NCBI GenBank assembly: GCA_963795085.1
Contig: CAWCFX010000003.1
Span: 64,001-128,000 of the forward strand
From: an uncultured Gemmatimonadales bacterium
Lineage (GTDB): Bacteria; Gemmatimonadota; Gemmatimonadetes; Gemmatimonadales; GWC2-71-9
DNA: 64,000 nucleotides
Direction of reading: 5' to 3'
A program made the translations under genes and the position numbers. Shown here piece by piece: positions 29,478 to 48,097 of the stretch (position 1 is the first letter of the stretch; each line of letters opens with the position of its first letter). The notes under the pieces were generated by a model. It was given only the letters and a program-made list of their open reading frames with translations. It searched no databases and was not told the DNA's origin.

Positions 29478-29539
29478 TCCAGACCTCCGAATCGAAAATG
29501 TCTCTAGCCAACCCGCTTCCGGACCGGCGACAGGACCAA

Positions 29540-29614: not shown

Positions 29615-29622
29615 GTTGCTGG

Positions 29623-29875: not shown

Positions 29876-30778
29876 TCATTGGGACAGGGGGCTCTCGCCC
29901 GGGTCAACGGGGTCATCGGGCGGGAGTTCCCACCCGTGGTTGAGGGCCAGCCGCCGGGGCCGGTCGGCCCGGCGGCGGACCCACCACGCCACCCCCACCA
30001 GCAAGCTTATCACCAGCCAGAACCCGCCCGCGCTGAGCCAGATCACGAAATTGTACTTTCGCTTGATGGTCCGCTGCCAGTCGGCCTCGAAAACAGTAAG
30101 CGGGAGCCCGGTCGATCCGAGGACGGCGGTTTCAAAGCTCTCTCCCCTGGAAAGTCGGCCCAGGAGATCATCCAGTGACTGGCCCGGATTGCGCCGCGCC
30201 AGTTCCAGGACGGCCGACATGGCCAGCGTGTAGGCCTTCTCCGCCGCGTTGGCGTTGGCCCGCAGGCTGCCGTCGAGGTCCCGGAAGCCGGGGAAGTCTC
30301 GCCTTAACACGATCCAGCTCAGCCGGAAGGCGTCCATCCGGTCCCATTCGCCGGAGGCAACGGCCGCGTAGCCTTCGTCGAACCATAGGGGGAGCCGCAC
30401 CCGCACCGCATCGTGCAGCACCAGGTGGGCCAGTTCATGTCGCAAGGTTTGTCGGGGATCCCCGCCGTCGGCGCGGATAATGACCGTCCGGCTGGAGGGG
30501 AACGCGAGGCCGGCGCCCCAGGATGGAGCGCGGTTGCCGGACATCCGGCGCATCGCGGCCGCATCCGGGACCACGACCAGCCGGATCCGGCCGGCGCTTC
30601 GGCGGCCCAGCCCCATCCATTCAGCGGGACGGTCGGCCGCCTCGGCCAGCGCCAGCGCCAGCCGGGATTCCGATGGCCACGCCACCACGCTGACGTCGCC
30701 GACGTGGATGATCGAGGCCAGCGTGTCCTGGGCCGGCAGCGCCGCGGGACCGGCGAGGGCGAGCAGGAGCGCGATCAG
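29876..30778 (-). CDS. Membrane-anchored peptidase MA-clan (HExxH) protein
   Basis: LRHELAH...PLWFDEGYA, C-terminal TM; signal-peptide-like segment in frame from CTG 30778 (first canonical start is GTG 30688). Confidence 0.78.
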   Translation of the reverse strand: MIALLLALAGPAALPAQDTLASIIHVGDVSVVAWPSESRLALALAEAADRPAEWMGLGRRSAGRIRLVVVPDAAAMRRMSGNRAPSWGAGLAFPSSRTVIIRADGGDPRQTLRHELAHLVLHDAVRVRLPLWFDEGYAAVASGEWDRMDAFRLSWIVLRRDFPGFRDLDGSLRANANAAEKAYTLAMSAVLELARRNPGQSLDDLLGRLSRGESFETAVLGSTGLPLTVFEADWQRTIKRKYNFVIWLSAGGFWLVISLLVGVAWWVRRRADRPRRLALNHGWELPPDDPVDPGESPLSQ

Positions 30779-31650
30779 GCCGGGGCGGCGGGCCGCGGCG
30801 GCTCTCCTCCGGCCGCGGTGGTGTCCAGCATTTCCTTGCAGCGTTTGCCCCAGGGGTTGAAGCGATTGGCTTTATAGCCGTCGTTCCATAGTTGCGCCGC
30901 CTGGTCCTGCTCGCCGGCGAACCAGTGGGCACGGCCCAGTTCGTAGTAGGCTTCGATCAGGTTGGGTCCCAGGTGGAGGGTCTTGCGGAAGAACACCTGC
31001 GCGTCCTCGAACATCTCCCTTTCCAGGTACACCAGCCCGAGGTAGAAATGGGCGTAGAGCGTGGCCTTGCGGTCGTTGTCCAGCCGAATGGCCTTTGACA
31101 GGTGCTCGATGGCTTCGCCGAAGATCCGCTTCTTGAGACAGATGTATCCCACGTTGATACGGGCGAGCGAGTTCGCCGGTTCCCGCATCAGGACCTTGCT
31201 GAACGTCGCGAGGGCCTCGTCATAATCTTCGTGCAGCATCTGGGCCCACCCCAGCAGCGACTGCGCCTGGACATCGCCCGGCGAGAGCGCCAGGGCCTTG
31301 CCCAGGGCCTGGATGGCTCCGGCGTGGTCGCCGAGGGAAATGAGACTCCACCCTTTTTCGATGTATGTCGAGGCACCCAGGTGATCCTGGTGGATGGCCG
31401 GGCGGGCCCCGGTAAACTGGGGCGCCTGGGCGGTGTCCGCATCCAGAGCGATCTGCTTGTAACGTTCGACCAGGGCGCGAATATCCTCCTTCAACCTGGT
31501 CAGGTCGGCCAGCGCGGCATCCACTTCCTTGAAGTAGGCGATGATCTCGCGCTTCAATGCCTCCCGGTCCACCGTGGTCGTCGCCCGGTCGATCCGGTCG
31601 GAGAGTTCCTGGTAGCGGGCCTTGAGGCCGTTGACCGACAGATCGCTCAT
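30775..31650 (-). CDS. Coiled-coil + TPR protein
   Basis: N-terminal heptad-rich helix, then ~5 TPRs (e.g. AHFYLGLVYLE, AYYELGRAHW). Confidence 0.85.
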   Translation of the reverse strand: MSDLSVNGLKARYQELSDRIDRATTTVDREALKREIIAYFKEVDAALADLTRLKEDIRALVERYKQIALDADTAQAPQFTGARPAIHQDHLGASTYIEKGWSLISLGDHAGAIQALGKALALSPGDVQAQSLLGWAQMLHEDYDEALATFSKVLMREPANSLARINVGYICLKKRIFGEAIEHLSKAIRLDNDRKATLYAHFYLGLVYLEREMFEDAQVFFRKTLHLGPNLIEAYYELGRAHWFAGEQDQAAQLWNDGYKANRFNPWGKRCKEMLDTTAAGGEPPRPAAPA

Positions 31651-32150
31651 GAAGTCCCGCTCCCGGAGGTTTTCTTCCCCCGGCTCGCCGGAGGGGCCAC
31701 GTCGGCGAGGGCAATCCGTTCGCTGGCGTTGAGCAGCCGCGCGGCCTGCAGCATGACAATGGTCCGGTTGGGGCGAGAGATAATGCCCGCGATATAATCC
31801 GCGGCCAGCCCCCTCACCATGGGCGGGGGGGTGGCGATGGTGGTGCTGTCCACCCGGGTCACCTCCAGCACCTGATCAACCAGCACACCGACTTTCCCCT
31901 CGTCCAGCCGGAGCACCATGATCCGCACATCCTCGGACAGATCGGCCTGGACCTGCAGCCGCTTGCGAAGGTCGACGACCGGGACCACGGCGTTGCCGTA
32001 CTGGACGACGCCTTCCAGGAAATCCGGGGCGTTGGGCAGCGAGGCCGGCCGCTCGTAGCGAAGGATGCGTTCGATCTGAAAGATATCGAGCGCGAACTCC
32101 TGGGAACCTACCCGGAAGATGACTACCTGGATTTCGTCTGCTGCCGTCAC
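31647..32150 (-). CDS. cheW: Chemotaxis adaptor CheW (third copy)
   Basis: QVVIFRVGSQEFALDI..IERI, LPNAPDFLEGV, VVPVVDLRKRL, GVLVDQV. Confidence 0.92.
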   Translation of the reverse strand: MTAADEIQVVIFRVGSQEFALDIFQIERILRYERPASLPNAPDFLEGVVQYGNAVVPVVDLRKRLQVQADLSEDVRIMVLRLDEGKVGVLVDQVLEVTRVDSTTIATPPPMVRGLAADYIAGIISRPNRTIVMLQAARLLNASERIALADVAPPASRGKKTSGSGTS

Positions 32151-32569
32151 GCGGGTGCCTCCGGAATGGTGAGACGATCGCCGACCCTGGCCAGGTCCAG
32201 CAGGGGCACCAGGCCGGTTGGAAGCCGGACCACGCCGGATGCCCACGGCAGCTTCTCCCCGGGAGGTGCCTCCATGGCCGTCCCCGCTACGATGGCTTCG
32301 GCATCGTCGACCTCGAGGCAGACTTCCCGGCCGCCCAGGGAGAGCACGACCGAGGTTCCCCCGGTATCCCCCGCGCCGGTGCCAATCAAGGTGCCCAGGG
32401 CGACCACCGGCAGGATGCGGCCCCGGGCGGCCGTCACTCCGCGGCAGGCAGCGGCGCTCGTCGGTACCGGATGCACCGTCCCCAGCGCCTCCACGGCGAC
32501 CACGAACTCGACCGGCAGACCCACCCGCCGGGACCCGAGGCGGACCAGGAGAAACTGCACCCCGCTCAT
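32147..32569 (-). CDS. cheW: Divergent CheW-like protein (second copy)
   Basis: [18 protein letters not shown]...[19 protein letters not shown]. Confidence 0.8.
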
Positions 32570-33633
32570 TGGCGAGCCATCCGGGCCAGGACATCAGTGA
32601 CCCGCCGCGCCAGCAGGCCCAGCGGCAGGACGTGGTCCACGCCTCCCGCCTGCACCGCCGCGTTGGGCATCCCGTAGACCGTGGACGTGGAGCGATCCTG
32701 GGCCAGTCCGCATCCGCCCGCATCGTGAATGGCTCGAAGCCCCACCGCGCCATCCCGGCCCAGCCCGGTCAGCACCACGCCGACGGTGGCCGGGCCATAG
32801 GTATCCGCGACGGAACGAAAGAGCGGATCGGCGGCGGGCCGAACCCCCCAGACCGCAGGAGACTGGTCCAGTACGATGACCGGCCCGCCTTCGCGCATTT
32901 CCACTCTCATATGATAATCGCCCGGCGCCACGAAGGCGGTGTCCGCCTGGAGGGGCGCACCGTCCCACGCTTCCACGACGGAGAGCCGGCTCTGTCCATC
33001 CAGCCGTTCGGCCAGTCCGCGGGTAAACGCCGCCGGCATGTGCTGGACGATAAGAATCGCGGCACCCTGCCCCGGCGCCAGCTGGGGCACCACCTCGGCC
33101 AGCGCGCGAGGCCCGCCGGTCGAGGCGGCGATCGCAACGCAGCGGCCGGCGAGCCCCGCGGCGACCAGATCGCGCCGCCCCCGCTGGGGAGGCCGGGCCA
33201 GCACCGGGATCCTGGAGACATCCGCCACCGCCGCCGCGCGGAGGGCCTGCAGCAGCCGGGGACCGAGCCGTTGGAGACCCTCCCGGCTGGGGCGCTGTTC
33301 CTTGTCGACAATCTCCACCGCGCCCAGTTCCAGCGCCCGGATCGCGCCGCTGCTGCCGGCTCCCGCGTGCGCGCTTACCACGACGATGGGGCGCGGAATT
33401 TCCGACATGATGTACCCGATCGCCGCCGGGCCATCCAGTTCCGGCATGTCGAGGTCCATCGTGATCAGGTCGGGAAGGTGCTGGTGCACCTTCTGGAGGC
33501 CATCGTGGCCGTTGCGGGCGGTGGCGGTGACCAGGAACTCACCCGAGGAATTGATGATCTCCGTCAGCACCTGGCGGACCAGGGCGCTGTCGTCGACCAC
33601 CAGGACCCGGAGGACTCTAGAGTCGGTGTTCAC
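32566..33633 (-). CDS. cheB: Protein-glutamate methylesterase CheB (REC + methylesterase)
   Basis: VDDS, TMDLDMP receiver; ASTGGP, VQHMP, TGLGRDG catalytic S-H-D. Confidence 0.96.
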
Positions 33634-34108
33634 TCTGATTGGCCGCTGACCGCACCACGACGGCCCCGTCGGACGGGTAAAACCAGACGGAGCGACCCGA
33701 CTCCCCGCCGACCAGCTCGCCGATGATCGGCACCCCAAGCTGGTTCAGCACGTCCCGGGTGGCCACCACGTTGCGCTCGCCCATCTGGATCGACCCGGGG
33801 GGGGACAGCGCCGCGAACAGGCTGGCCCCGCCGACCAGCCGGGCGCTCACCCGGCGGGGGACCGCACCGAGACCGGTGAGCCGGTCCAGGAGCGCCGGCA
33901 CCGCCCCCTGCGGGGTCTTGGCGGGATTGTCATCCTTCCGCACCAGTGAGCGGGAGGGCAACATGATGTGGGCCATGCCTCCCACCTTCTTGACCGGATC
34001 GTAGAGCACGATCGCGACGCAACTGCCGAGCCCGTAGGTCACCAGCACTTCGCCGCTCACGCCGGTATTCAGGTCGGCGACCCGGACGATGATCTCGCGG
34101 CCCGTCAT
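33617..34108 (-). CDS. cheD: Chemoreceptor glutamine deamidase CheD
   Basis: [10 protein letters not shown]...GGMAHIMLP (catalytic Cys/His), [19 protein letters not shown]. Confidence 0.95.
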
Positions 34109-34926
34109 GCCGGCCGCCGATAGACGCGCTCCCGGGCGTCCACCAGCTCGAGCCGGTCACGCATGGGCCCGAGAATCGTTTCCACCTTGCCCAGCACCAG
34201 GATTCCGCCGGGACGCAGCGATTCGGTAAACAGGGTAAAGAGCCGTTCCTGCATGGCCCGGTCGAAGTAGATCAGCACGTTGCGGCAAACGATGAGGTCG
34301 TAGGGAGCATGGCGGGGAGTATCCCGGGTCAGGTCCAGCCGGTTGACGTGGACCACCCGCCGAATCGGATCGGTAACGAGGCGGCTGCCCGGATCGGCCG
34401 GTTCAGTGTACCGGTCGATGTACTCTTCCGGCGCCTCGCTGAAGGCGCCCAGCGGATAGGCCCCGATGCGGGCCCGGTCGAGGCTGACCCGGTCGATGTC
34501 GGTCGCGTCGATGGCCAGCCGGTGCATCCATTCCGGGTGCCCCGCCTTGAGCGCGACTTCCGCAAACAGCATCGCCAGGGAGTACGGCTCCTCGCCGCTG
34601 GCGCATCCGGCGCTCCAGACCCGGAGCACGCGGCCGGCGTCCCGCCACAGCCCGGCTACGACGTCCTGCTGCAGCCGCTGCCACAGTTCGATGTTGCGGA
34701 AGAACTTGGTGACGTTGATGGTGAGCACATCGGAAAGCTTCTGCAGTTCGTCCGGCGTGCGCTCCAGGATGGCGAGATACTCGTCGTAGGTCGCCACGTT
34801 GTGGGCCCGCATCCGGACCGCGATGCGGCGCTTGAGGCAGCGCGGCTTGTATGCCTCGGTGGAGAGGCCGGCGACTTCGCTGATACGGCGGGTCAACTGG
34901 GCAAAGCTCGCATCGTCCGTGGTCAT
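34105..34926 (-). CDS. cheR: Protein-glutamate O-methyltransferase CheR
   Basis: TINVTKFFRN, WSAGCASGEEPYS, ATDID, CRNVLIYF. Confidence 0.96.
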   Translation of the reverse strand: MTTDDASFAQLTRRISEVAGLSTEAYKPRCLKRRIAVRMRAHNVATYDEYLAILERTPDELQKLSDVLTINVTKFFRNIELWQRLQQDVVAGLWRDAGRVLRVWSAGCASGEEPYSLAMLFAEVALKAGHPEWMHRLAIDATDIDRVSLDRARIGAYPLGAFSEAPEEYIDRYTEPADPGSRLVTDPIRRVVHVNRLDLTRDTPRHAPYDLIVCRNVLIYFDRAMQERLFTLFTESLRPGGILVLGKVETILGPMRDRLELVDARERVYRRPA

Positions 34927-36545
34927 GACGCGACGTTCCCCAGGGTTTCCAGATTGGTCCGGGCCAGCTGGTGCCCGGGGTTCAGCACCGTCGCCTGCTG
35001 CCACCAGGCGCGGGCCCGCTCCTGGTCCCGACGGCGAAAGGCGATATTGCCCATCTTGAAATAGAGGTCGTCACCCAGGTCGGGATTGAGTTTGGCGGCC
35101 CGCTCGTAGGCATCGAGAGCCTCGTCGTACCGGCCGGCGCGGTACAGCAGGTCGCCCAGGTTCTTGGATATCTGGGAGTACGACGGCTCCTCCGCCAGCG
35201 CCGATCGGGCCATGACCTCGGCGCCGGCCAGGTCGCCGGTGAGCTCGAGCAGCACCGCCAGGTTATTGCGAATGACGGCGTTCCCGGGGTGGGCCTGGAC
35301 ACCTTCCTGCGCGGTGCGCACCGCGCCGCCGAGGTCGTCCGCGCCGGCCGCCGCCAGCGACGCGGCCCAGAACCAGGTGGCCGGCGGTGGCCGCTCCCCC
35401 CAGACCTCGCGGGCCCGGGCCAGCCGGGCCACCGCCACCCCCGGGTCGCCCCGCTTGAGGGCGGCAATGCCCCAGCTCAGCATGTACCGGGCATCGTCGC
35501 GGGCCCGGCTCACCGCGTCGGCGTAGGCGGCTTCCGCGTCGTCGAGCCGTCCCATCTGCTCCAGCGCGAAGCCCAGATTGTGCAGCACCGAGGGCCGGGC
35601 TCCCCCCAGGTCGGCCGCCTGCCGCAGGCAGGACACCGCCTCGGGCCAGCGGGCTTGCCGGAGAGCGATCAGGCCCAGGTAGAACGCGGCGCTGGGTTCC
35701 CGGGGCCGCAGTTCCGCCACCCGGCGGAACTCCCGCAACGCTTCGTCCAGCATTCCGGTCTTGTAGAAAGCGATCCCCAGGTTCCGGTGCTCGTCCACCC
35801 GGCCTTCGGGCGCCTGGGGTGCCGGGTTCGGCACCGAGGACCCGGTGCGGTGGGCAAACCCGGCCGTGATCAGGCCGTACAGGGCCTTGCCGGCCTCGAA
35901 CTCAATCAGCCCGGAATCCTCGAAGACCTGCTGCACGTCCCGGGATCCATCGAGCAGGGGGAGGATCCGCTCCTGGCTCGGCGACAGCCGCACATCGGAC
36001 TGGGCCAGGTGCTCGCGGTCCAGCGCGAAGATCAGGTCCAGGGCCGGGATTTTTTTCTCGATCAGGCTCCACTCGTCCACCCGGCGGGCGCCTTCCAGGA
36101 GGAGCGACTCCGGGTTGATCTGGACCAGGAAGTCTTCCCGCTCAGGGCGGACCCCCGCCTCGAAGTTGAAAGTCCCCGAGTTCCAGGTGAAAAGGAAGTA
36201 CACCGCTTCCTCGATCTGGAGGCGCATGTATTCCTCCAGCTCTTCACGCGAGATCGCATTGATCTCGACCAGGATCTGACCCAGTTTGGTGTCCCGCTTC
36301 TCGGTCTGCATGTCCACCGCCTGTTGCAGCTGGGCGGCCGAGATGCGGTTGTTCTTCACCAGGATGTCGCCCAGCCGGTCCCGGCGGTTGACGATCGAGG
36401 CGTAGCAGATCTTGCCCAGGTCGAAGTAGATATAGCCGAAGTTGTGGCGGTCGGCGACAGCGAGCAGGCCGGTCTTGCGGCCCAGCGCCAGCAGCTGCAG
36501 CACGTCGGGCAGACTGGCTTCCTTGAGACTCCCCTTGATGGCCAT
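34923..36545 (-). CDS. DUF4388 (PATAN-like) + tandem MshEN-like motifs + TPR protein
   Basis: [61 protein letters not shown] repeats; ~8 C-terminal TPRs. Confidence 0.88.
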   Translation of the reverse strand: MAIKGSLKEASLPDVLQLLALGRKTGLLAVADRHNFGYIYFDLGKICYASIVNRRDRLGDILVKNNRISAAQLQQAVDMQTEKRDTKLGQILVEINAISREELEEYMRLQIEEAVYFLFTWNSGTFNFEAGVRPEREDFLVQINPESLLLEGARRVDEWSLIEKKIPALDLIFALDREHLAQSDVRLSPSQERILPLLDGSRDVQQVFEDSGLIEFEAGKALYGLITAGFAHRTGSSVPNPAPQAPEGRVDEHRNLGIAFYKTGMLDEALREFRRVAELRPREPSAAFYLGLIALRQARWPEAVSCLRQAADLGGARPSVLHNLGFALEQMGRLDDAEAAYADAVSRARDDARYMLSWGIAALKRGDPGVAVARLARAREVWGERPPPATWFWAASLAAAGADDLGGAVRTAQEGVQAHPGNAVIRNNLAVLLELTGDLAGAEVMARSALAEEPSYSQISKNLGDLLYRAGRYDEALDAYERAAKLNPDLGDDLYFKMGNIAFRRRDQERARAWWQQATVLNPGHQLARTNLETLGNVAS

Positions 36546-38475
36546 CAGCGCAGGTCCTCCACGATCCGGTCGGCGGAGTCGGGCCAGTCCCAGATCATCT
36601 TCTCGGAACTGCGAACCGTCCCGGAGGGCAAGGCGACCACGCCGCTCACCCGGTTCCCCCCGCTCCGCCTGGGGGGCTTGGGGGCGGACCTTCGAGGAGC
36701 TCGCGGGCGAGCGCGGCGGTGGGCGGCTCCTGGCGGGTTTCGGCGGCGCTCACCACCCGCTGCAGGATCCCCTGCAGCGTCCGCACGGAGTCCACCGACC
36801 GTCCCGCCAGGTATTCTGCCAGCTCCTGATTACCGCCGCCGGTGCCTTGCCGCACCAGACGCTCCAGCACCGCGACCCGCACTTCCCGCTCCGGGGGCGG
36901 CAGGTGCACCACCAACCCCCCCTCAAGGCGGCTGATCAGGCGGGGTTCCACTCCCGTCAGTTCACCCAGCGGCATCGGGCTGGTGAAGACCATCTGCCGG
37001 CCTTCCTTCAACAGGTGGTTGAAGAGCCAGAAGAACTCTTCCTGCGTCCGCTCCTTACTGTGCAGCAACTGGATATCGTCGAGCAGAAACGCGGTCACCC
37101 GGCGATACCGGGATCGCCACCAGGCCACCCGGTCGCGGTCGATGGCCGCGATGAGGTCGTCGACCAGCTCCTGGGTGTTGAGACAGGCCACCAGCGCCCC
37201 ATCGTGCCGGGCCAGCCCGTTGCCGATGGCGTGGAGGAGGTGGGTCTTGCCGGTCCCGCTGGGGCCGACCACCACCAGCGGGTTGTATTTGAGCGCCGGA
37301 TGCTCCACCGCCATGAGCGCCGCGCGTACCGCGATCCGGTTTCCGGGTCCCTCGGCGAAATCGGAGAGTTGCCAGAAAGGCGAGGGCCCCGGCGGCGGGG
37401 TCGCCCCTTCCCGGGCCCGGGCCAGCAGTGCGGCGGCATCATCGACCCGGTCGGGATCGCGGAACACCGCCTCGCCGCCGAGGCTGGCGTCGATGTCCAC
37501 GGCATCGGCCTCGATCGCGCGAAGCCGCTCGACATCCTCCGCAAACTGGCGCAGGGTGGCGTCGGGGTCGGCGGGGGAGTCCTGTTCCAGAAGCGCGCTC
37601 AGCCGGCTGACCCGGTACCCTTCGCCTTCCCACCGCATCACCGCCTCGGCCACCCGGGTGCGCCAGGCCTCCACCTGCTGGGCGACGGTGTGGGAAATCT
37701 CGGACAGGAAGCTGCCGAACTCGTCGGCCTCGGGGGGCGGCGGGGTGACGCCCAGGGGCACCCCGCCGAGCACCACCCGGGCCTGGGCCGGGTCGAGCGG
37801 CTGATCACTCACCGCCTGGAACGCGATCAACCGGTTGAGCGCGCCGATCAGCTCGCGCACGTTGGTGATCGCCAGCGATGCGACCGCTTCCAGCACACCG
37901 GCGGCGAATTCCGCCCGCCGCTCCTCGGCGTGGCGCCGCACGATGGCCACCCGGGTCTCGTAGTCGGGGGCGGCGATGTCGATCACCAGGCCGCCGGCGA
38001 ACCGCTGGATCAACCGCTCGTCCAGTGACTCGATGTCCGCCGGGCTCCGATCGCTGGTCAGGACGATCTGCCGGCTCGCGGTCTGCATCGCGTTGATGAC
38101 CCGGAGCAATTCGGCCTGCATCTCGCGCCGCCGGTCAAGGAACTGGACATCGTCGACCAGCAGCAGGTCCACCTCGGTGAATCGGCGGCGGTAGGCCTCG
38201 CCCTGGCCGGCGGCGACGGCGGCGTGGAAGGACTCCATGAAATCGTCGAGGGTGAGGTACTCGACGGCGAGGGCGGGATTGATCAGCCGCGCGGCATGAG
38301 CTACGGCCATGAGCAGGTGGGTCTTGCCCAGTCCGGGGCCGCTGTAGATGAACAGCGGGTTGTAGGCCACGCCGGGGCTCTCGGCCACCGACTTGGCGGC
38401 CGAGACCGCCAGCCGGTTGGCGGAGCCCACCACGAACGTATCGAAGCGGAACCGGGGATTCAGGTCCGCGGTCAC
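36545..38475 (-). CDS. DnaA/Hda-like protein with two tandem AAA+ modules, no DNA-binding domain; apparent 1-nt frameshift near the 3' end
   Basis: Module 1: [42 protein letters not shown]; module 2: [34 protein letters not shown]. Uncorrected ORF stops at 36646; shifted frame runs to a TGA overlapping the next ATG. Confidence 0.88.
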
Positions 38476-39074: not shown

Positions 39075-39107
39075 TCAGTCCGGTCTCTGGGTCACGGCGG
39101 TCTCCGG

Positions 39108-39569: not shown

Positions 39570-39916
39570 CAGGAGCCGCCCTCCGCGACCCGCGCCATTT
39601 CCAGCCGCGCCCGCCCCACGTTGACGCCCTTGTCCGCAATCACGATGAGCAGAAGCCCGGCGCCAGCCGGGGCCAGCAACAGCGCGCCACCGGTCGCCTG
39701 CAGGTGCAGAAACCCGGCGCTCCCGCCGCGGGCGGTCATCGCCGCCGTCTCCAGTTTCCGGGCCAGGCTGCTCGCCAACGCGGCCAGGGCGGCGCTCTCG
39801 ACGTCTTCCCGAATCGATTCCGCGACCACGATGCCGTCATCCCGGCTGGCCAGCATGGCCCCGCGGACGCCGGCGATGCCGGTGAGACGGTCCAGGGCCG
39901 CCGGTGTCAGGGTCAT
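39569..39916 (-). CDS. Roadblock/LC7 domain protein
   Basis: GVRGAMLASRDDGIVVA, ALAALASSL, LLLIVIADKGVNVGRARLEM. Confidence 0.88.
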   Translation of the reverse strand: MTLTPAALDRLTGIAGVRGAMLASRDDGIVVAESIREDVESAALAALASSLARKLETAAMTARGGSAGFLHLQATGGALLLAPAGAGLLLIVIADKGVNVGRARLEMARVAEGGS

Positions 39917-40791
39917 GCGCCTGCCTCCAACCAGCGGCGGGCGGCTTCCAGCGCCCGCCCGGTCCCGATGGCTACCCGTCCCATTGGCATCGAGGGATCC
40001 CGCATTACCATCAGGAGCGTTTCCGCCGTCGGCGGCACCAGGAAGTAGTTGGCGGCGCCGGTTTCCACCGCGATACTCCGCCATTCCCCGAGGTCCAGTA
40101 TCCGGGCCGCTCGAGCCGCCTCCCGGGAAACGCCCGCGAGTTCCGCCGCCACCTGGTCGGCGACGCCTTCCCCCAGTTCCCCCAGGGATCCGAGCAGGCG
40201 CATCCCGGCGGAATCCACCAGCAACAGTCCGTCGTCCTCCAGCACCGCATCGCCGGCCGCCGCGGGCCGGGGAGAGGAGGGCGGGATGGACGGTTGCTCG
40301 ACCTCGAAGCGAATGGCGGCCGGCGCGGCGGGAGTCCCGATCCGCGGGGGTTCCTCCGGGACCGGCGTGGCCGGCTCCGCTTCCCGCGCGGCGAGTTGGG
40401 CCCTGACCCGCTCGAGGGCGCTCTCCACCTGGGCATCGCCCGGCAAGTCCGCCGCCGCCGCATTCAGATGGCGAAGCGCCGACGGAAGGTCGCCCGCTTT
40501 CCAGAACAGGAAGGCGAGGCCCTTGTGAGCGCCGCCATGGGCTGGGTCCAGCCGGAGCGTCATGTCCCACTCATCGAACGCCCCTTCGAGGTCCTGGTGA
40601 TCCACCAGCACCCGGGCATACAGGTCGTGGGCCTCCGGGAGATTGGGATAGCGCACCAGCCCCTGGAGGGCCACCTTGGCGGCGGGCTCGAGCCGGCCGG
40701 CCTGGCGCAGGGCTTCCCCCAGCCGGAGAAACACCAGGCTGGTGGAATCGGCGGCCAGTTCGGCGGTCATCCGGCGGATGTCGTCAGTCAC
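39913..40791 (-). CDS. TPR + Pro-rich linker + C-terminal roadblock-like fusion protein
   Basis: N-terminal TPRs (SLVFLRLGEALRQAG...), PEEPP linker, C-terminal GLLLVDSAG...VAAELAG...LGEWRSIAVE...LLMVM. Confidence 0.78.
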   Translation of the reverse strand: MTDDIRRMTAELAADSTSLVFLRLGEALRQAGRLEPAAKVALQGLVRYPNLPEAHDLYARVLVDHQDLEGAFDEWDMTLRLDPAHGGAHKGLAFLFWKAGDLPSALRHLNAAAADLPGDAQVESALERVRAQLAAREAEPATPVPEEPPRIGTPAAPAAIRFEVEQPSIPPSSPRPAAAGDAVLEDDGLLLVDSAGMRLLGSLGELGEGVADQVAAELAGVSREAARAARILDLGEWRSIAVETGAANYFLVPPTAETLLMVMRDPSMPMGRVAIGTGRALEAARRWLEAGA

Positions 40792-41929
40792 CCGGCCCTC
40801 GCAGTGCCTGGTCCAGAGTCGCGACCGCTTCTCGCACCGCCCGGACCGTGGCGGAATGCGCCGCCTCTTCGGGCGGCATGCCGGCGGTGGCGTTCCAGCG
40901 GTCGCAGGCGTCCGTGGCCTCGCGGAAGCGACCCTGGGCGGCCAGGCAGAGGCCCCACAACCGCCAGGCGGGGATAAAATCCGGGTCCAGCTGGAGCGCC
41001 CGGTGAATCGCGGTCCCGGCCTCGGCGTAGCGGCTGCTTCGCAGCAGCGTCCGCCCCAGCACGACATGGGCCAGCGGCTGGTCGGGATAGTGGGTCGCGG
41101 CTTCCTCCGCGATCTGGCGCGCGACATCGGTTTCCCCGTTGAACAGCTCGTTCTCCGCCCGGCTGATCATGATGGCCAGTTCCCTCCCGCCAGGCTGCTC
41201 CCGGGGGTGCTGGGCCGGGTCCTCGAGCTGGATGATGCCGGCGCTGGCCAGCCCGAAGAGAGTCTTGGCGACCTCGAACTCGGAGCGCACCAGCGCCAGC
41301 GAAATACCCCGTACGTCCTGGGCTCCGTCGATCGCCGCCAGCACTTCCCACTCGAACGGGATCAGGTCCAGCGGCGCCTCGGACGAGGGGAGGGCCAGCC
41401 GTGGCAGGATGCCGAGGTGAGGAATCTTGGTTTCGATGCGCGACCACTCGTCGATCCGGCGTGCCGCTTCCATGACCAGCGCCTCGGTGGTGATCCGGAT
41501 ATCCGCCTCGGCGGGAGACTCGGCCACTTCGCCTTCCTCGAATGAGAAGTAGCCCTCCGCCCAGCTCAGCAATTCGAAAATGACTTCCTCGACCTGGGAA
41601 CGGACCTGCCGGTCCAGTTCACGCCGGGTGATGGAGCCCATGGCGATCAGGATCTCACCCAGCCGGCGGGGGTCGCCATTCTGCTGCATGGCCCGGGAAC
41701 GGGTCAGGTCCTCTTCCGAGATCTTGCCGGCCCGAAGCAGGAGGCCACCCAGCGGGTGCGGGTTGCTGCGGATCTCGGCGCCAATCACGGCGCCCTTCTC
41801 GAAAAACACCATCCCCGCGTTCTGGCGGATCTCGGAGCGCACCCTGAGCACCCCGGTCTTCCGGCTCAGGTCCAGCAGCTGGAAGACATCGTGGATGCCC
41901 AGTTCGCGGAGAGGGCCTTCGATCGCCAC
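40784..41929 (-). CDS. DUF4388 + tandem MshEN-like motifs + TPR protein (second copy)
   Basis: AIEGPLRELGIHDVFQLL..SRKTG.L, LLSWAEGYFSF, LVMEAARRIDEW; PLGGLLL/RLGEILI repeats; C-terminal TPRs. Confidence 0.87.
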   Translation of the reverse strand: MAIEGPLRELGIHDVFQLLDLSRKTGVLRVRSEIRQNAGMVFFEKGAVIGAEIRSNPHPLGGLLLRAGKISEEDLTRSRAMQQNGDPRRLGEILIAMGSITRRELDRQVRSQVEEVIFELLSWAEGYFSFEEGEVAESPAEADIRITTEALVMEAARRIDEWSRIETKIPHLGILPRLALPSSEAPLDLIPFEWEVLAAIDGAQDVRGISLALVRSEFEVAKTLFGLASAGIIQLEDPAQHPREQPGGRELAIMISRAENELFNGETDVARQIAEEAATHYPDQPLAHVVLGRTLLRSSRYAEAGTAIHRALQLDPDFIPAWRLWGLCLAAQGRFREATDACDRWNATAGMPPEEAAHSATVRAVREAVATLDQALRGPGD

Positions 41930-41930
41930 G

Positions 41931-44627
41931 TCAGGATGCCCTGGACACGAGAATGCGTTCCAGGTCACGGGCCGACCGTGCCTCGTTCCTTGCCAGCTGC
42001 GCGAAGGAGGAGGCCGGGTCGGCCTGGACCACTTTTTCCCACAGCTGCAGCGCCTGGTGATAGCGGCGCATCCGGGCCAGCGCGACCCCCCCGTAATACA
42101 ATGCCCCGGTGCAGTCCGGCGCGAACTTGAGGATCCGGCTGAATGCTTCCAGCGCCCGTTCCGGGCGGCCATCGTCGATCAGGGTGCGGCCCAGCAGCTG
42201 CAGCGCTTCGAGGTCGTAGGGATCGTGAATCAGGAGCGAGACCAGGACATCCGTGGCGGCCGGTCGCGCCTCGGTCCGCCGCAGCAGGTCGGCCAGCGCC
42301 AGCCCGGCTTCCACGTAGGTGGGCAGCAGATCGAGCGCCCGTTCATAGGCCGCGCGGGCGCCGGTCCAGTTCTCCCGTTTCTCTTCCAGCGCTCCCAGTT
42401 CACACCAGACCTGGGCCAGCGACCCGTCCAACTGGAGCGCGCCCTGGTAGGCCTCGATGGCGGCGGCGGTTTCGCCCAGCCGCGCGGCGATGTTCCCCTG
42501 CAGCTGCAGCAGGTCGGGCCGGCCGGGAGCCCGGGCCTGGGCCTCCCGGGCCAGGTCCATGGCACCGACCGGGTTGCCCGCGGCCAGCCGGGTGCGCGCG
42601 GCGGCGACGAGCACCTCCACGTTGTCCCGGCAGCGCGGGATCATCGATTCCACGATGGATGCCGCTTCGCTTGCGCGGCCCAGGGCGAGCAGCGCCCGGA
42701 CTTCGCCCAGGGCCGCCCCGTCGTTGCTCCCCAGCTCCTTGCGAGCCTCGCGGTACCGTTCCAGCGCTTCGCCATGCAGGCCTCGCCGGGCGAAGATATG
42801 TCCGGCCAGCACCGCCGCCTCGGCGGGCGAGGCTCCCCGCCCGAGGGCCCGGTCCAGTTCGGCGGAGGCCCGCTCCAGCAACCCCTTGGCCACGCACTCG
42901 CGCGCCAGGGCCAGCGGATCTTCGCCGGTCGGCCCCGCCGTGGCGGGGGCCGGGACGGCGGGCGCGAGTTCCCGAAAGACCTGATCCAGGAGGCGCTGAT
43001 CGAACGTGAAATCCTCGCCCAGTTCCTCGGTGACGACATCAGCTGAAATCTCCGGAACGATGGCGATGGTCGGGTCTTCGTACTGGAGGTCGATCGTCAG
43101 CGAGTACTTCTGGGGAACATAGAACGGCTCCAGTTCCAGCGCCCGCTTGGTTTCCCGGAGAGCTCCATCGAACTCGCCCAGCTGGCTCAGGGTGAAACTC
43201 AGGTTGTAATGGGCCGACGCGCTCTCGGGATCGGATTCGACGGCCCGGGCGAAGGCATTGCGCGCATCGGGAAAGCGCTTGAGTTCAGTGAGAACCAGCC
43301 CGATCCCATTCCACGCGATGGCGTTGCCCTCCGACTGGGCCAGGACCTGCCGGTACGCCTCCAGGGAGAGTTGCAGCCGGCGCCGCTGCAGGAGCAGCAG
43401 CCCCAGGTTCAGCTGGGCCGTGATGAGGTCGCGCCTGCAGCGGAGGGCCTGGTGAAAGGATTCCTGGGCATCGTCCGAGCCGGTGTCACCGCTCTGCAGG
43501 ACCCCCAGGTTGTTCCAGCTGAGGGCATAGTTGGGATCAAGGGCGACCGCTTTGCGATAGGCGGCCGTGGCTTCCTCCCGGCGGCCGGCCTGGTGCAGGC
43601 AGACGCCGCGCTCGTTTTCCAGCTTGGGGGAGTCGGCGAACTCGGCCACCAGTCGATCATACAACTCCAGCGCCGCGCCCAGGTCCCGGCGCAGGAGGTG
43701 CACCTCGGCCATGGCCTGGAGCGTCAGGCGCCGGTCCTCCCCGCTCTCCAGGGCCAGCCGGTACTCGCGCAGCGCTTCGACATAATAGCCCTTCTGCCGG
43801 AACGCGAGGCCGAGATTGTAATGCGCCAGCGTGGATCCGCCGGCCAGGGATGGCCGCCGCAGTTGGTCGCTGCCTTCGGCGATGACCCGGGCGCCTCCGG
43901 TCCTGCGCCGGAGCGACAGGTTAGTATGGGCCCGGGCGAAGGTGGGATTGAGCGCGATGGCCCGCTTGGTCGCCGCCCGGGCCGCCTCGTGCTGGCCCAA
44001 ATCGCCGTACAGGAACGCCAGCAGATAGTGGGCGTCGGCGTTGTCCGGGTTGAGTCCCACCGCCTCCTGCAGGATGCTCCGGGCCTGGTCGTTGAGGCCG
44101 CGGTTGTACAGGGCTTCCCCGTAGTAGAACAGGGCCAGCGAGCTTTCCGGGTCCAGGTCCCGGGCCTCGCCGAACCGGTCGCAGGCCTCTTCCAGGTGGC
44201 CACTGGCCTTGAGCGCGAGGCCGAGCTGAATCAGGGCAGCCACGTCGCCGGGGGACCGCGCGAGCAGGGCTTCGAACTCCCGGACGGCGTCTTCGTGGTG
44301 GCCCAGCGACGCGTAGGTGCGGGCCAACTCCCACCGGGCATCCCGGTCGTCGGGAGCCCGGCGCACCCGCTCGTGCAGTTCCGCCACCCGGCGATCGTAG
44401 TACCCGGTGTTGCGGTAGGCGACCTCCAGGTTGGCCTGGGCCACCTGCATCTTGGGATCGAGTTCCAGCGCCCGGGAAAACGCGGCGATGGCCTCGGCGA
44501 CCAGGCCTTTCTGGTGGTAGAGGACGCCCAGGTTGTTATGGGCGCCGGCGTCGGAAGGATCGATCCGGCGGGCAAAAGAACGCAGGACCGCGAGGTCGCG
44601 TTCCGAGAGGACCGAGCCGCCGGACAT
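41931..44627 (-). CDS. Large cytoplasmic TPR-repeat protein (898 aa)
   Basis: Many canonical TPRs (AHNNLGVLY, AHYNLGLAF, SWNNLGVL, AWNGIGLVL); no signal peptide. Confidence 0.9.
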   Translation of the reverse strand: MSGGSVLSERDLAVLRSFARRIDPSDAGAHNNLGVLYHQKGLVAEAIAAFSRALELDPKMQVAQANLEVAYRNTGYYDRRVAELHERVRRAPDDRDARWELARTYASLGHHEDAVREFEALLARSPGDVAALIQLGLALKASGHLEEACDRFGEARDLDPESSLALFYYGEALYNRGLNDQARSILQEAVGLNPDNADAHYLLAFLYGDLGQHEAARAATKRAIALNPTFARAHTNLSLRRRTGGARVIAEGSDQLRRPSLAGGSTLAHYNLGLAFRQKGYYVEALREYRLALESGEDRRLTLQAMAEVHLLRRDLGAALELYDRLVAEFADSPKLENERGVCLHQAGRREEATAAYRKAVALDPNYALSWNNLGVLQSGDTGSDDAQESFHQALRCRRDLITAQLNLGLLLLQRRRLQLSLEAYRQVLAQSEGNAIAWNGIGLVLTELKRFPDARNAFARAVESDPESASAHYNLSFTLSQLGEFDGALRETKRALELEPFYVPQKYSLTIDLQYEDPTIAIVPEISADVVTEELGEDFTFDQRLLDQVFRELAPAVPAPATAGPTGEDPLALARECVAKGLLERASAELDRALGRGASPAEAAVLAGHIFARRGLHGEALERYREARKELGSNDGAALGEVRALLALGRASEAASIVESMIPRCRDNVEVLVAAARTRLAAGNPVGAMDLAREAQARAPGRPDLLQLQGNIAARLGETAAAIEAYQGALQLDGSLAQVWCELGALEEKRENWTGARAAYERALDLLPTYVEAGLALADLLRRTEARPAATDVLVSLLIHDPYDLEALQLLGRTLIDDGRPERALEAFSRILKFAPDCTGALYYGGVALARMRRYHQALQLWEKVVQADPASSFAQLARNEARSARDLERILVSRAS

Positions 44628-44634
44628 TCGGCCG

Positions 44635-45255
44635 TCAGGTCAGCCGGATGGCGTCGAACACCGCGCGGAGCGACGCGAGGTCGGGCATCAGCAGGAAGTG
44701 GCCGCGGAGACCCTTGGCTTCATCGGTGAACTGGAATTCGGTTTCCAGGCAGAAGACAAAGTCCCGTTCGTACCCGAAGTTGAGGTACGTCGTGGTGAGG
44801 ATCGCCCCGGAGAGGTCGATCACCAGCGAGGGCACCGAGGGAAGCAGCATCATCCCCATGAAATCGCTCAGCGCGGTGAGGTAGGCGCTGCTCAGAATGT
44901 TGCCGGCCTCCTTGAGCCCGGATTCTTCCATGATGCCGAATTCGACGGTGGTGCCGATGGGGCGCCGCAGCAGGATGTCGCACAGCATCCGGGCCGAGTC
45001 CCGCGGAAAAATCACCATGGTCCGGCCGGTCAGATCGCCCATCATGTGCATGAGCACCGCGGCGATCACGTCGTCCGGCTTGCCCAGGACGTCGGCGACC
45101 TGTTCCAGCCGGGTGATGTTCACCTCGGGCACCGTGATCATGATCTTGCGGCTGGTCATCTGCGACAACGCCGTCGCGGCGTGACCGGCCCCGATATTGG
45201 CCACCTCGCGGAGGGCGTCCAGTTGCAGCGCCTGCAAGTTCCGTATGTCGTCCAT
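44635..45255 (-). CDS. cheC: CheY-P phosphatase CheC
   Basis: DALREVANIGAGHAATALS and SGLKEAGNIL (two ExxN sites); GGAG RBS before ATG 45255 (alternative start 45267). Confidence 0.95.
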   Translation of the reverse strand: MDDIRNLQALQLDALREVANIGAGHAATALSQMTSRKIMITVPEVNITRLEQVADVLGKPDDVIAAVLMHMMGDLTGRTMVIFPRDSARMLCDILLRRPIGTTVEFGIMEESGLKEAGNILSSAYLTALSDFMGMMLLPSVPSLVIDLSGAILTTTYLNFGYERDFVFCLETEFQFTDEAKGLRGHFLLMPDLASLRAVFDAIRLT

Positions 45256-45293
45256 TGAATACTCCATTCCGGAAGCCCGCCAACCCACCCCTG

Positions 45294-45319
45294 CCCGGTA
45301 CTCAGTCCTGAGTACCGGG
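45294..45319. promoter_or_regulatory. Perfect 12-bp inverted repeat between cheA and cheC
   Basis: CCCGGTACTCAG-tc-CTGAGTACCGGG, no U tract. Confidence 0.5.
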
Positions 45320-45322
45320 TGC

Positions 45323-47218
45323 CTACATCAGCGCTGCCGCATCCAGGATGAGCGCCGGTTCACCGTCACCCAGGATGGTGGCCCCGGAGAACACCGGCAG
45401 CATGCCCCGGGGCGCCTCGAACGGCTCCACCACGATCTCCTGCTGGCCCAGCAGCGCGTCCACCACCAGGGCGCTCTTGCGCTCACCCGATTCGAGGATG
45501 ATGGCCGGGGGCCGCGCCGGGGCCGGGTCGCCGTTCACCCGGAGCAGGTCCCGGAGCCGGGTGGTGGGAATTACCCGATCGCGCAGGACCAGCGCCTCGC
45601 GGCCGCCGAGCGAGGTGCTCCGCCCGGGATCCCATTCGATGGTCTCGGCCACGTGGGCGAGGGGCACCGCATAGCGCTCCCGACCGACCCGGGTGAGCAG
45701 GACCCGGAGCACCGCCAGGGTGACCGGGAGCCGCAGCGTGATCGAGGTTCCCCGCCCCGGCTCCGATTCGATCGCGGCCGCCCCGCCGAGGGCCCGCACC
45801 CGGGTCAGTACAACATCAATACCCACCCCGCGTCCCGACACGTCGGTCACGGCGGCGGCGGTGCTGAACCCGGGCCGCCCCATCACTTTGAGGAGGATGT
45901 CGTCAGTCAGCTCGCCAGTCACCGATTCCATCAGGCCATCCTGCACCGCCCGTTCGGCAATCTTCCTGCGGTCGATCCCGCGGCCATCGTCGGTGACCCG
46001 GACCGCGACGCCACTGCGGTCGCGCGCCGCCGAAAGTACGATCCGTCCCATCTCGTGCTTGCCGGCCCGCCGCCGGTCGGCCGGCGACTCGATCCCGTGG
46101 TCCACCGCGTTCCGGAGCAGGTGCAGCAGCGGATCGCCGATCTCGTCCAGGATGGCCCGGTCCAGTTCGATGTCGCCGCCTTCGATCAGCAGGTCCACCC
46201 GCTTGCCCAGCTGGCGGGCGAGGTCGCGCACCAGGCGCGGATAGCGGTCGAAGACCTGCCAGACCGGGGAGAGACGGACCTGGATGACCTCGGTCTGCAT
46301 CTCACTCACCAGCCGGCTGATCCGCGCGCTCACCGCCTCGAGATCGGGGTTTGGGGCGTGCGCCACCACCTCGGCCAGCCGGCCCTTGGCCACGACCAGT
46401 TCGCCCATGTGGTTCATCAGGGCATCGAGCCGGCGCAGGTCCACCCGGATGTGCCGGGGGCCGCCCGGCGCGGCGGGATCTTCGACCGGCGCCGGGACCG
46501 GCGCCTCGCCGATGGAAACGGTATCGACGTCGCCGGCGCCCCGGATGGCTGCCTCCACCACCTGGTCGGTCACATCGGTATGGAGCCGGAACGAAAAGCG
46601 CCCGTCGAAATCCTGCTTTTCCAGGTCGGACAGCGCGGGCCGCACACCGGTCACGTGGCCCAGCGCCTCGGCCCGCTTGAGGGCCAGGGCGGCGCGGCCG
46701 CCCCGCATGACCGCCTCCGAGCGAATCGCCACCCGGACCAGCCGGCCGGTGGCGACCGGCTCGGCCGTCCCCGCGGCCGTGGCCTCGATGGTCTGCCGGG
46801 CGGAGCGCACCGCGCGCATTTCGCCGGTGCGGGACTGGGCCTGGCTGGCGGCCGCGTCGAGGTCGGCGATCAGGGCGGCAAAATCGAGCCGATCATCGCG
46901 CCCCCCGGTGGCCTCCTCCAACGACTGCTCCAGGGTGTCCACCGCCCGGAAGAGCAGGTCGATCAGGTCCGCCTCGGCCGATGCTACCCGTTCCCGGAGC
47001 AGCGAGAGCAGGCTTTCCGCGCGGTGAGCCAGCGCCGCAAGGTTGGCATAGCCCATGGTGGCCGCCATCCCCTTGAGCGTGTGCATCGCGCGGAAGATCC
47101 CCACCACCGGCTCCGCGGCGTGGGGCGAGCGTTCAAGTTCCAGCAGCAGGCGGTTGCACGCCTGGAGATGCTCACGGCCTTCCGCGAGAAAGAGGTTGGC
47201 GTACCGGGAAAGGTCCAT
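45323..47218 (-). CDS. cheA: Chemotaxis histidine kinase CheA (P1-P2-P3-P4-P5)
   Basis: FRAMHTLKGMA (Hpt), IRVDLRRLDALMN, HLLRNAVDHGIE, DDGRGID, DVSGRGVGID, SGATILGDG. Confidence 0.98.
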   Translation of the reverse strand: MDLSRYANLFLAEGREHLQACNRLLLELERSPHAAEPVVGIFRAMHTLKGMAATMGYANLAALAHRAESLLSLLRERVASAEADLIDLLFRAVDTLEQSLEEATGGRDDRLDFAALIADLDAAASQAQSRTGEMRAVRSARQTIEATAAGTAEPVATGRLVRVAIRSEAVMRGGRAALALKRAEALGHVTGVRPALSDLEKQDFDGRFSFRLHTDVTDQVVEAAIRGAGDVDTVSIGEAPVPAPVEDPAAPGGPRHIRVDLRRLDALMNHMGELVVAKGRLAEVVAHAPNPDLEAVSARISRLVSEMQTEVIQVRLSPVWQVFDRYPRLVRDLARQLGKRVDLLIEGGDIELDRAILDEIGDPLLHLLRNAVDHGIESPADRRRAGKHEMGRIVLSAARDRSGVAVRVTDDGRGIDRRKIAERAVQDGLMESVTGELTDDILLKVMGRPGFSTAAAVTDVSGRGVGIDVVLTRVRALGGAAAIESEPGRGTSITLRLPVTLAVLRVLLTRVGRERYAVPLAHVAETIEWDPGRSTSLGGREALVLRDRVIPTTRLRDLLRVNGDPAPARPPAIILESGERKSALVVDALLGQQEIVVEPFEAPRGMLPVFSGATILGDGEPALILDAAALM

Positions 47219-47222
47219 CCGG

Positions 47223-47585
47223 TCAGCCGAGGACGCGCTGGACGGCCTCGAGGACGCGGGAGGGCTGGAACGGCTTCACAACAAAGTCCTTGGCGCCGGC
47301 CTGGATGGCCTCGACGACCAGGGCCTGCTGCCCCATCGCGCTGCACATGAGGACCTTGGCATCGGGATCGGTCCGGCAGATTTCCCGGACGGCGTCGATC
47401 CCGCCCATATCGGGCATGACGATATCCATGGTGACCAGGTCCGGTTTGAGCTGCCGGTATTTCTCCACCGCCTGCCGGCCGGTTTCGGCTTCACCGACCA
47501 CCTCGAACCCTGCCTGGGCGAGAATGTCGCTGATCATCGTGCGCATGAAGATCGCGTCGTCGCATACCAGAACCGTATGACCCAC
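47223..47585 (-). CDS. cheY: Chemotaxis response regulator CheY (Bacillus/Thermotoga-type)
   Basis: CDDAIFMR, TMDIVMP, MCSAMGQQ, GAKDFVVKPF. Confidence 0.95.
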   Translation of the reverse strand: MGHTVLVCDDAIFMRTMISDILAQAGFEVVGEAETGRQAVEKYRQLKPDLVTMDIVMPDMGGIDAVREICRTDPDAKVLMCSAMGQQALVVEAIQAGAKDFVVKPFQPSRVLEAVQRVLG

Positions 47586-47644
47586 GAAAGCTCCTTTCCT
47601 TGACCTGTCCAGCGTCCCCCTGCCCGGAAGAGAAGGGGGAACGA

Positions 47645-48097
47645 CTACCTGGCCTTCACCGGCGCAAGCACGGGACCCAGCACGACGTCCGGATCGAGTA
47701 CCACGAACACCAGCGATTCCCAGCGTCCGACTGCGCGTACGATTTGCGGATCCACGCCCGGCAGGGTGCCGCGGTCCTCCAGGGCACTGGCGGGAACGTG
47801 GACGAGATCGTGAACCTGGTCAACGAGAAGGCCGAGGGGCCGGCCGTGAACCTGCAGGAGAAGGATCGAGGGCTCGGCACCGGGCTCCCCCGCCGCCCGC
47901 CCCAGCATCCGCCGCCCATCCACCACCGTGACCAGCCGACCCCGCACATTCACGAGCCCTTCGACGCCGTCAACCGCCCCGGGAATACGGGCGGCACCCA
48001 GCGCGGGGACGATCTCCCGGACAGCCGCCACCGGGAGGGCACAGATCAGGTCGCCCACCCGGAAGATGACCAGGCTCGCCGCGGTAGTTTCAGCCAT
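47645..48097 (-). CDS. cheW: Chemotaxis adaptor CheW (first copy)
   Basis: LVIFRVG..CALPV..VREI, IPGA..VEGLVNVRG, GLLVDQV; start overlaps rluD stop. Confidence 0.92.
   Translation of the reverse strand: MAETTAASLVIFRVGDLICALPVAAVREIVPALGAARIPGAVDGVEGLVNVRGRLVTVVDGRRMLGRAAGEPGAEPSILLLQVHGRPLGLLVDQVHDLVHVPASALEDRGTLPGVDPQIVRAVGRWESLVFVVLDPDVVLGPVLAPVKAR

Follow-up and report, generated by a model that had tools for sequence, protein, structure and literature searches.

In Myxococcus, MglA-GTP is reported to bind the last three tetratricopeptide repeats (TPRs) of the all-TPR protein SgmX and thereby to activate pili (PMC7668184), and in Synechocystis regulators with a PATAN domain (DUF4388) are described as binding the pilus motor (bioRxiv 2021.06.11.447907). 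Here we analyse a 19-gene cluster within a 64,000-nucleotide stretch of contig CAWCFX010000003.1 of an uncultured Gemmatimonadales bacterium (the window), in which chemosensory (che) genes surround an eight-gene block that encodes TPR scaffolds, two PATAN proteins, roadblock proteins, an MglA GTPase and an ATPase built from two copies of DnaA domain III. The cluster is a real, conserved and apparently undescribed combination of known modules and one uncharacterised ATPase family, and the reading that we favour, with a probability of about one half, is that it controls polar type IV pili.

Like the MglA/MglB/MglC/RomRX-Frz-SgmX system of Myxococcus, the cluster brings together a Group 1 MglA, an MglB-like protein with extra roadblocks, a large all-TPR protein and chemosensory input. 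It differs from the Myxococcus polarity module in that its parts sit in one cluster, that its MglA is a second paralog beside a recR-linked mglBA pair, and that PATAN proteins with an MshEN-like insert and a DnaA-derived ATPase have been added. Unlike FrzE, its CheA includes P2 but lacks a receiver, and neither mark of the Frz class (a CheA-receiver fusion and a cytoplasmic 40-heptad (40H) receptor) was found. In Myxococcus, whose genes for this lie scattered, the route from Che to MglA has been worked out only in part; the present cluster collects the candidate links in one place and in a widespread phylum.

On the chemosensory side the cluster resembles Dif of Myxococcus and the Dif-like clusters of Geobacter, with which it has in common CheW, CheY, CheA with P2, CheC, 44-heptad (44H) receptors and a non-flagellar output; CheD and CheR are shared with the Geobacter clusters. 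Published accounts of Dif and Dif-like clusters include CheC, receptors of the 44H class and an output to polysaccharide (PMC2577667, PMC3945109, PMC4671073). In contrast to Dif, there is no chemoreceptor gene among the 19 genes, and the eight-gene Mgl/PATAN/ATPase block stands between cheC and cheR.

MglA-MglB-PATAN gene neighbourhoods were reportedly described by Makarova in 2006, as cited in PMC4316618. For Gemmatimonadetes, a 2014 study reports Group 1 MglA and PATAN genes beside mglA (PMC4316618), and lists GAU_1409 of G. aurantiaca as 'PATAN>MglA>-PATAN>' (PMC4316618, supplement file 3). The GAU_1409 neighbourhood thus has the PATAN-MglA-PATAN arrangement of our cluster, with one unnamed gene at the position of the ATPase; the same supplement file contains 0 occurrences of CheA and of DnaA. 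Two PATAN proteins are named as unstudied candidates in PMC11580455. Cyanobacterial PATAN-receiver regulators differ from the proteins studied here, in which PATAN is joined to an MshEN-like insert and to TPRs in place of a receiver. The preliminary description of this DNA had named no characterised system with such an architecture: this holds for the combined unit in the literature searched (which included few subscription journals), but not for its MglA-PATAN part, which was tabulated in 2014 (PMC4316618).

Conservation, flagellar independence and separable halves

We sampled 151 genomes evenly across the phylum and, scoring the tandem ATPase at E ≤ 1e-70, found the ATPase in 97 of them, CheA in 114, MglA in 120, a receptor in 111, PilM in 142 and FliG in 40. 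Since related genomes are not independent, these and the following counts serve as descriptions, not as tests. In 83 of the 97 ATPase genomes cheA lies on the same contig within 12 kb of the ATPase. Of the other 14, seven have the ATPase close to the start of a contig and cheA on a different one, six have no che genes, or no cheA, at the locus, and in one (G134) the locus is reduced. Among 40 loci in other genomes, chosen for an ATPase match on a long contig, 38 hold cheY, cheA, cheC, TPR898 (the all-TPR protein), both DUF4388 genes, mglA and the ATPase in the window's order, so that the arrangement is not a matter of chance; 22 carry all 17 single-copy families, and one of the two loci without the full eight-gene core stops at a contig edge. 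The interleaved order reaches sister orders (G061, G117, G126, G074), so that the survey of mglA, ATPase and cheA neighbourhoods proposed in the preliminary description found the linkage kept across the order and beyond it. Families f6, f7 and f9 (23 genomes searched, G134 excepted) and family f10 (nine genomes searched) gave no match to the ATPase or to DUF4388. Named relatives of the ATPase come from Gemmatimonadota at 33 of 37 loci, mostly labelled Gemmatimonadales; at the remaining four, from other phyla, the match is confined to the DnaA domain.

Pathways of the Thermotoga/Bacillus type (class F1) have a CheA with P2 and without receiver, CheC together with CheD, a Thermotoga-like CheY and 44H receptors. 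The cluster encodes such a CheA and CheY, with CheC and CheD. The host genome (93% complete) has one cheA, the cluster copy, and three chemoreceptors, all encoded outside the cluster, whose arms after the hairpin tip measure 154, 156 and 162 residues and fit 44H in 3/3 cases, by a length count and not a class profile. In CheY, D9, D10, D54 and K104 are invariant and mean column identity is 86% (35 sequences); in CheC, E21, P47, E120, N123 and P146 are invariant and N24 is kept in at least 90% (23 sequences).

The preliminary description had started from the premise that CheC/CheD pathways normally signal to flagella, to which Myxococcus Dif, CheC-type and non-flagellar, is a counterexample; its expectation of a non-flagellar output here is mostly borne out, because FliG is absent from 61 of the 83 carriers of the linked locus (32 genera) and present in only 22. 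No flagellin scored above cut-off in five FliG-less carriers checked. After Dif, the cluster is the second example of a CheC/CheD pathway whose output is not flagellar. Ordinary flagellar chemotaxis with unrelated neighbours could be argued from CheY and CheC, which are nearest to solved flagellar-type proteins, and from the host, which is flagellated, has a single cheA and encodes a FliM in which the N-terminal peptide that binds CheY seems to be kept. However, besides the many FliG-less carriers, flagellated ones often have another cheA near fliG (30-45 kb from it in at least 8 of 22), and the host flagellar cluster (L081-L082, C1:965000-995000) contains a receiver-only gene of its own and no cheA. 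This makes the flagellar explanation highly improbable, and as a general role it is largely refuted; cross-talk of the cluster to the host flagellum may occur, given a flagellated host with one cheA.

Either half of the cluster can be lost. Five genomes from three genera (G017, G130, G166, G070 and G090, 95-99% complete, the G070 locus being cut by a contig end) have no CheA dimerisation domain and no receptor, and keep the Mgl/PATAN/ATPase block, the peptidase and TPR291, a smaller TPR protein, with unchanged profile scores, except that TPR898 scores somewhat lower in the first three. The che genes are missing at the locus of G113 too. Since the block is intact where che genes are lost, we regard Che as a detachable input. 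Conversely, G092 and G094 keep cheW-cheY-cheA-cheC, cheR and PATb (the second PATAN protein) and have lost mglA, the roadblocks and the ATPase; in G094, TPR291 likewise remains with the che genes. Two loci are remnants: rluD-mglA-PATb-cheR-TPR291 in G132, and in G134 only the ATPase, PATb and the peptidase, after rluD and without a cluster mglA. In the earlier proposal Che is wired to the Mgl switch and the AAA+ ATPase; the linkage is conserved, and any such wiring would not be an obligatory coupling, since each half persists alone.

One may ask whether these are separate modules on a shared transcript, Che having its own output and the Mgl/ATPase block being independent. The loss of each half without the other is consistent with this, as are the conservation of PATa (the first PATAN protein), PATb, MglA and the ATPase, which is unaffected by che loss, and the fact that the gene train runs on from the housekeeping genes rluD and lspA at its head, whose order is conserved too. 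Yet the interleaved order is kept from the host family to sister orders, and PATb and TPR291 stay with che in G094, or with mglA and cheR in G132, and we consider this explanation quite unlikely.

The tandem ATPase, MglA and the scaffold proteins

The ATPase resembles DnaA and Hda in its domain III sequence and in its Walker and arginine-finger residues. It differs from both in having two AAA+ copies joined by a 125-residue linker, in lacking domains I and IV, in its C-terminal peptide and in its presence beside a canonical dnaA elsewhere in the host genome. Measured on a relative (P0002), domains 1 and 2 are 44% and 32% identical to domain III of the host DnaA and 29% identical to each other; DnaA domains I, II and IV gave no match to the ATPase (for I and IV none better than E=1.6), and an Atlas search with the linker gave no usable match. 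In a quick tree, domain 1 groups with DnaAs. Across 36 sequences Walker A, Walker B, sensor I and sensor II of domain 1 are at least 90% conserved, with the arginine finger as the majority residue; in domain 2 the lysine of Walker A, one aspartate of Walker B and the arginine finger remain, the sensor I pair is not kept, and the lid has been lost in several lineages. Nor does the protein conform to Hda, which is a single short AAA+ domain with a clamp-binding motif at its N-terminus: it has two domains and begins directly at domain III, without such a motif as judged by eye, and the Hda model scores it at 159.8 against a cut-off of 194.8. Databases label the family 'chromosomal replication initiator' or 'DnaA/Hda family', though it has no DNA-binding domain.

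A role in the cell cycle would have the ATPase co-oligomerise with DnaA or bind single-stranded DNA at the origin, with polarity or environmental signals gating replication or asymmetric division. The closeness of domain 1 to the host DnaA and its conserved nucleotide site point this way, as does the position of the cluster just upstream of rsmH-ftsI-mur. In addition, domain 2 keeps equivalents (in a consensus aligned by eye) of I190, K222 and T225, which are reported to bind single-stranded DNA in B. subtilis DnaA (bioRxiv 2022.03.18.484894). Against this, the protein has neither DnaA domain I nor IV, domain 1 has H, R and M at the three DNA-binding positions, domain 2 is without lid or wholly deleted in several lineages, entire lineages have no ATPase, and between the cluster and the division genes lie two tRNA genes and a gene for a TPR protein; such a role is improbable.

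In the window the ATPase is 609 residues long, versus 643 in close relatives. Near 36670-36690, in a C-rich run, one base of the frame is missing from the window in comparison with 4/4 near relatives, the missing tail is encoded in another frame, and its stop overlaps the PATb start. The frameshift, an assembly error or a recent pseudogene, shortens the frame and so accounts for the 100-nucleotide gap after the ATPase. The tail is a conserved peptide whose tryptophan is the only invariant residue past domain 2. Its profile retrieved 244 representatives among 1.84 billion proteins; among the matches listed, 148 of 150 have the tail at most three residues from their C-terminus. Where the matching protein has at least 180 residues, the alignment to the ATPase profile runs far past the tail in 57 of 59 cases. 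The tail is retained in G104, where domain 2 is wholly deleted, and in two distant families (6/6 genomes) a single-domain ATPase with the tail is followed by a TPR-only gene, the start of which resembles the first TPR of PATb and which is followed by the peptidase in two cases.

The columns of the last TPRs of PATb are filled at 62 of 64 ATPase-bearing loci versus 0/6 ATPase-less loci (genome-wide absence of the ATPase was established by profile search for the genomes of five of these and by protein search for G035). Since the lost end of PATb lies far from the ATPase gene, the two were not removed by one shared deletion. Because these TPRs vanish with the ATPase and the distant ATPase-TPR pair is kept, the ATPase peptide likely docks on the C-terminal TPRs of PATb. 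We also considered that loss of the PATb MshEN insert is tied to loss of the ATPase (5/5 loci) and rejected it, as the five are one clade and G132, without ATPase, keeps the insert.

The cluster MglA is 61% identical to the recR-linked MglA of the same genome, which is encoded together with an mglB in another pair downstream of dnaX and recR; the latter protein (L083:9164-9835, minus strand) has about 225 residues and an insertion of about 30 residues relative to the cluster copy. Residues K25, Q82 and K142 are invariant and R53, T54, N141 and D144 are kept in at least 90%. Full-length similarity to M. xanthus MglA, the P-loop lysine, R53, T54, Q82 and NKxD together place the protein in Group 1, and its catalytic residues are intact. 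The gene of the MglB-like roadblock directly precedes mglA and its product is closest to MglB among solved structures; the NCBIfam MglB model gives it 34.8 and the canonical copy 82.7, with a cut-off of 200. The stand-alone roadblock is nearer to other roadblock structures than to MglB. By analogy with SgmX, TPR898 is a candidate MglA effector, and it is diverged or shortened in two genera that likewise have a divergent MglA. A FliM-like CheY-binding peptide suspected at its N-terminus was dropped, because genomes without che retain it and its sequence is that of a TPR capping helix.

Both DUF4388 proteins contain an MshE-type motif for cyclic di-GMP (c-di-GMP), a feature absent from the preliminary description. 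The motif model scores PATb at 44.2 bits, above the cut-off of 38, and PATa at 35.7 bits, below it, the first PATa repeat being without its arginine. In the two RLGxxL...L..Q repeats of PATb, R57, L62, L73 and L92 are invariant and G59, Q80, G89, L103 and Q110 occur in at least 90% of 36 sequences; an Atlas search with PATb matched PATAN clusters only. Judging from these motifs, the two PATAN proteins probably bind c-di-GMP, which the host, with 13 GGDEF matches in its genome, can probably make.

In one genus (G088, G123, G153, G112) the three roadblock genes and the PATa insert have been lost together and MglA is divergent; in G114 the roadblock genes are lost and the PATa insert is retained. 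Such natural deletion variants point to contacts between the ATPase tail and the PATb TPRs, and between PATa, the roadblocks and MglA. In another genus (G127, G065, G066; loci L017, L099, L106) TPR898 is short, PATa is degenerate and MglA has diverged strongly; cheR, cheD, cheB and two cheW genes are lost as well, with ATPase and PATb intact.

Tentatively, the ATPase may be the oligomerising AAA+ domain of DnaA, re-used for signalling instead of replication and docked on a TPR adaptor that binds c-di-GMP, forming with the dedicated MglA a lineage-wide hub that would integrate chemosensory phosphorelay, GTPase and second-messenger inputs. In the boldest form of this proposal, the hub would contact DnaA itself and couple polarity to replication in budding Gemmatimonadota.

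Type IV pili and polysaccharide as candidate outputs

The favoured reading, a polarity switch acting on type IV pili, builds on what is shown above: which genes are present, how well they are conserved, that their catalytic residues are intact, how they are lost, and that the cluster does not depend on flagella. All of its protein contacts, the c-di-GMP binding and the pilus output we infer. Its core would be a switch for polarity or a surface machine, made up of the second MglA, the MglB-like protein as candidate GTPase-activating protein (GAP), two more roadblocks, the TPR scaffolds and the two PATANs. The last TPRs of PATb would hold the ATPase via its C-terminal peptide, the ATPase serving as an ATP-dependent oligomeric switch or scaffold and not as a replication initiator. 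Input would come from the Thermotoga/Dif-type chemosensory pathway, fed by the 44H-like receptors encoded elsewhere: CheA would phosphorylate CheY, CheC and CheD would terminate the signal, and CheR and CheB would adapt it. Phospho-CheY, or another receiver, would then bias the core, which would set the place or timing of type IVa pilus activity. The host has a type IVa pilus set (PilM, a PilQ-like secretin, PilT and PilB-like ATPases), and PilM is present in 80 of the 83 carriers.

Several points weigh against this reading. Pilus co-occurrence discriminates little, since PilM is near universal in the phylum and is also found in families without the locus (7/7 in f6, 12/16 in f7); no pilus gene lies within the 19-gene cluster; and most genomes of the order have a separate canonical mglBA, which could be the pair that serves pili. 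The Che and Mgl halves are not obligatorily coupled. The six ATPase-less loci represent one or two evolutionary events, their tree needing two losses and remaining compatible with a single origin. In the distant families neither mglA nor DUF4388 was matched, and the ATPase-TPR pair stands behind glycosyltransferase genes. A PilB-receiver fusion as the target of CheA is unsupported, as the fusion is retained in che-less genomes.

Two genes on contig C1 of the host genome (L123:4951-7146 and L125:7722-9893, both plus strand) encode PilB/GspE-like ATPases with MshEN and a C-terminal receiver; the first is kept in 18/18 searched family genomes, with or without che.

The output might instead be of the Dif kind, with CheY as a phosphate sink and the Mgl/PATAN/c-di-GMP block gating matrix production or attachment rather than pilus polarity. 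The cheW-cheY-cheA-cheC order is that of difC-D-E-G, and the priming sugar transferase and dapF genes that precede the ATPase-TPR pair at 4/4 distant-family loci scanned would suit such an output. The receptor arm lengths fit 44H, given as the class of DifA (PMC3945109), one receptor has almost no periplasmic domain (by eye), as reported for Geobacter Dif-like receptors (PMC2577667), and DifD is described as a sink, with DifE acting on exopolysaccharide via EpsW (PMC4671073). There is, however, no polysaccharide gene in or beside the window cluster and, contrary to dif, no receptor gene within it. Dif is also not known to have a linked MglA. On balance we think a Dif-like output rather unlikely.

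The receptor in question (L003:1321-2634, minus strand) has 437 residues and two hydrophobic segments, like DifA; another (L002:49-2124, plus strand) combines a GAF domain with an N-terminus that is hydrophobic and multi-pass.

Gene layout and neighbourhood

Pfam and NCBIfam scans of the window proteins, from which the gene labels in the table are taken, agree with the gene order of the preliminary description, all 19 genes lying on one strand, from 48097 to 29876, with the Mgl/ATPase block between cheC and cheR. That description has most junctions overlapping, usually by 1-8 nucleotides; with starts as chosen here, 10 of the 18 internal junctions overlap, by 1-17 nucleotides, three are gaps of 1-7 nucleotides and five are gaps of 33-100. 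The gene train extends further upstream, because rluD overlaps the first cheW.

Table. Features of the cluster in gene order along the minus strand.
Feature	Position	Strand	Basis or remark
cheW (first)	47645..48097	-	Pfam CheW, E=6e-25; 8-nt overlap with upstream rluD
cheY, single receiver domain	47223..47585	-	nearest solved structure 1tmy, E=9e-53
cheA: Hpt, P2, dimerisation, kinase and CheW domains, no receiver	45323..47218	-	Pfam
cheC, phosphatase	44635..45267	-	profile match to 1xkr, E=1e-46; both E-x-x-N...P sites present
TPR898, 898-residue all-TPR scaffold	41931..44627	-	Pfam
PATa: PATAN (DUF4388) with MshEN-like insert, then TPRs	40784..41929	-	Pfam DUF4388, E=2e-31
TPR-roadblock fusion	39913..40791	-	Pfam; weak roadblock match, E=0.001
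Stand-alone roadblock protein	39569..39916	-	Pfam Robl_LC7, E=2e-8
MglB-like roadblock, candidate GAP	39108..39569	-	profile match to MglB 6izw, E=8e-18
Second mglA, GTPase	38472..39074	-	match to MglA 5ymx, E=4e-73
Tandem DnaA-domain-III ATPase: AAA+, helical linker, AAA+	36646..38475	-	domain scans; frameshifted before tail
ATPase C-terminal conserved peptide, out of frame in the window	36545..36690	-	stop overlaps next start codon
PATb: PATAN with full two-repeat MshEN-like motif, then TPRs	34923..36545	-	Pfam DUF4388, E=6e-37
cheR	34105..34926	-	Pfam
cheD	33617..34108	-	Pfam
cheB (receiver and methylesterase)	32566..33633	-	Pfam
cheW (second)	32147..32569	-	Pfam
cheW (third)	31647..32150	-	Pfam
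TPR291: helical N-terminus and strongly conserved TPRs, 291 residues	30775..31650	-	kept when che genes are lost
Peptidase MA-like metallopeptidase	29876..30688	-	Pfam Peptidase_MA_2, E=3e-13; hydrophobic C-terminal segment by eye

A scan for promoters and terminators stayed at chance level (1 promoter versus 1.0 expected, 9 terminators versus 7.8 expected), and PADLOC models of anti-phage defence matched 0/10 proteins at E ≤ 1e-10. The GC content of the cluster is on par with the rest of the window. Ahead of the peptidase (30688-30790) its frame stays open through a signal-peptide-like stretch, so that the true start is probably nearer 30775; the stretch has no ATG, GTG or TTG, which suggests a non-standard start at the TPR291 stop. 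Rfam matches were two tRNAs only, tRNA-Val (29540-29614) and tRNA-Asp (27571-27645), and a TPR protein gene lies at 27753-29684 between them. This gene, the placement of which is kept in many relatives, and the two tRNAs stand between the cluster and rsmH-ftsI-mur.

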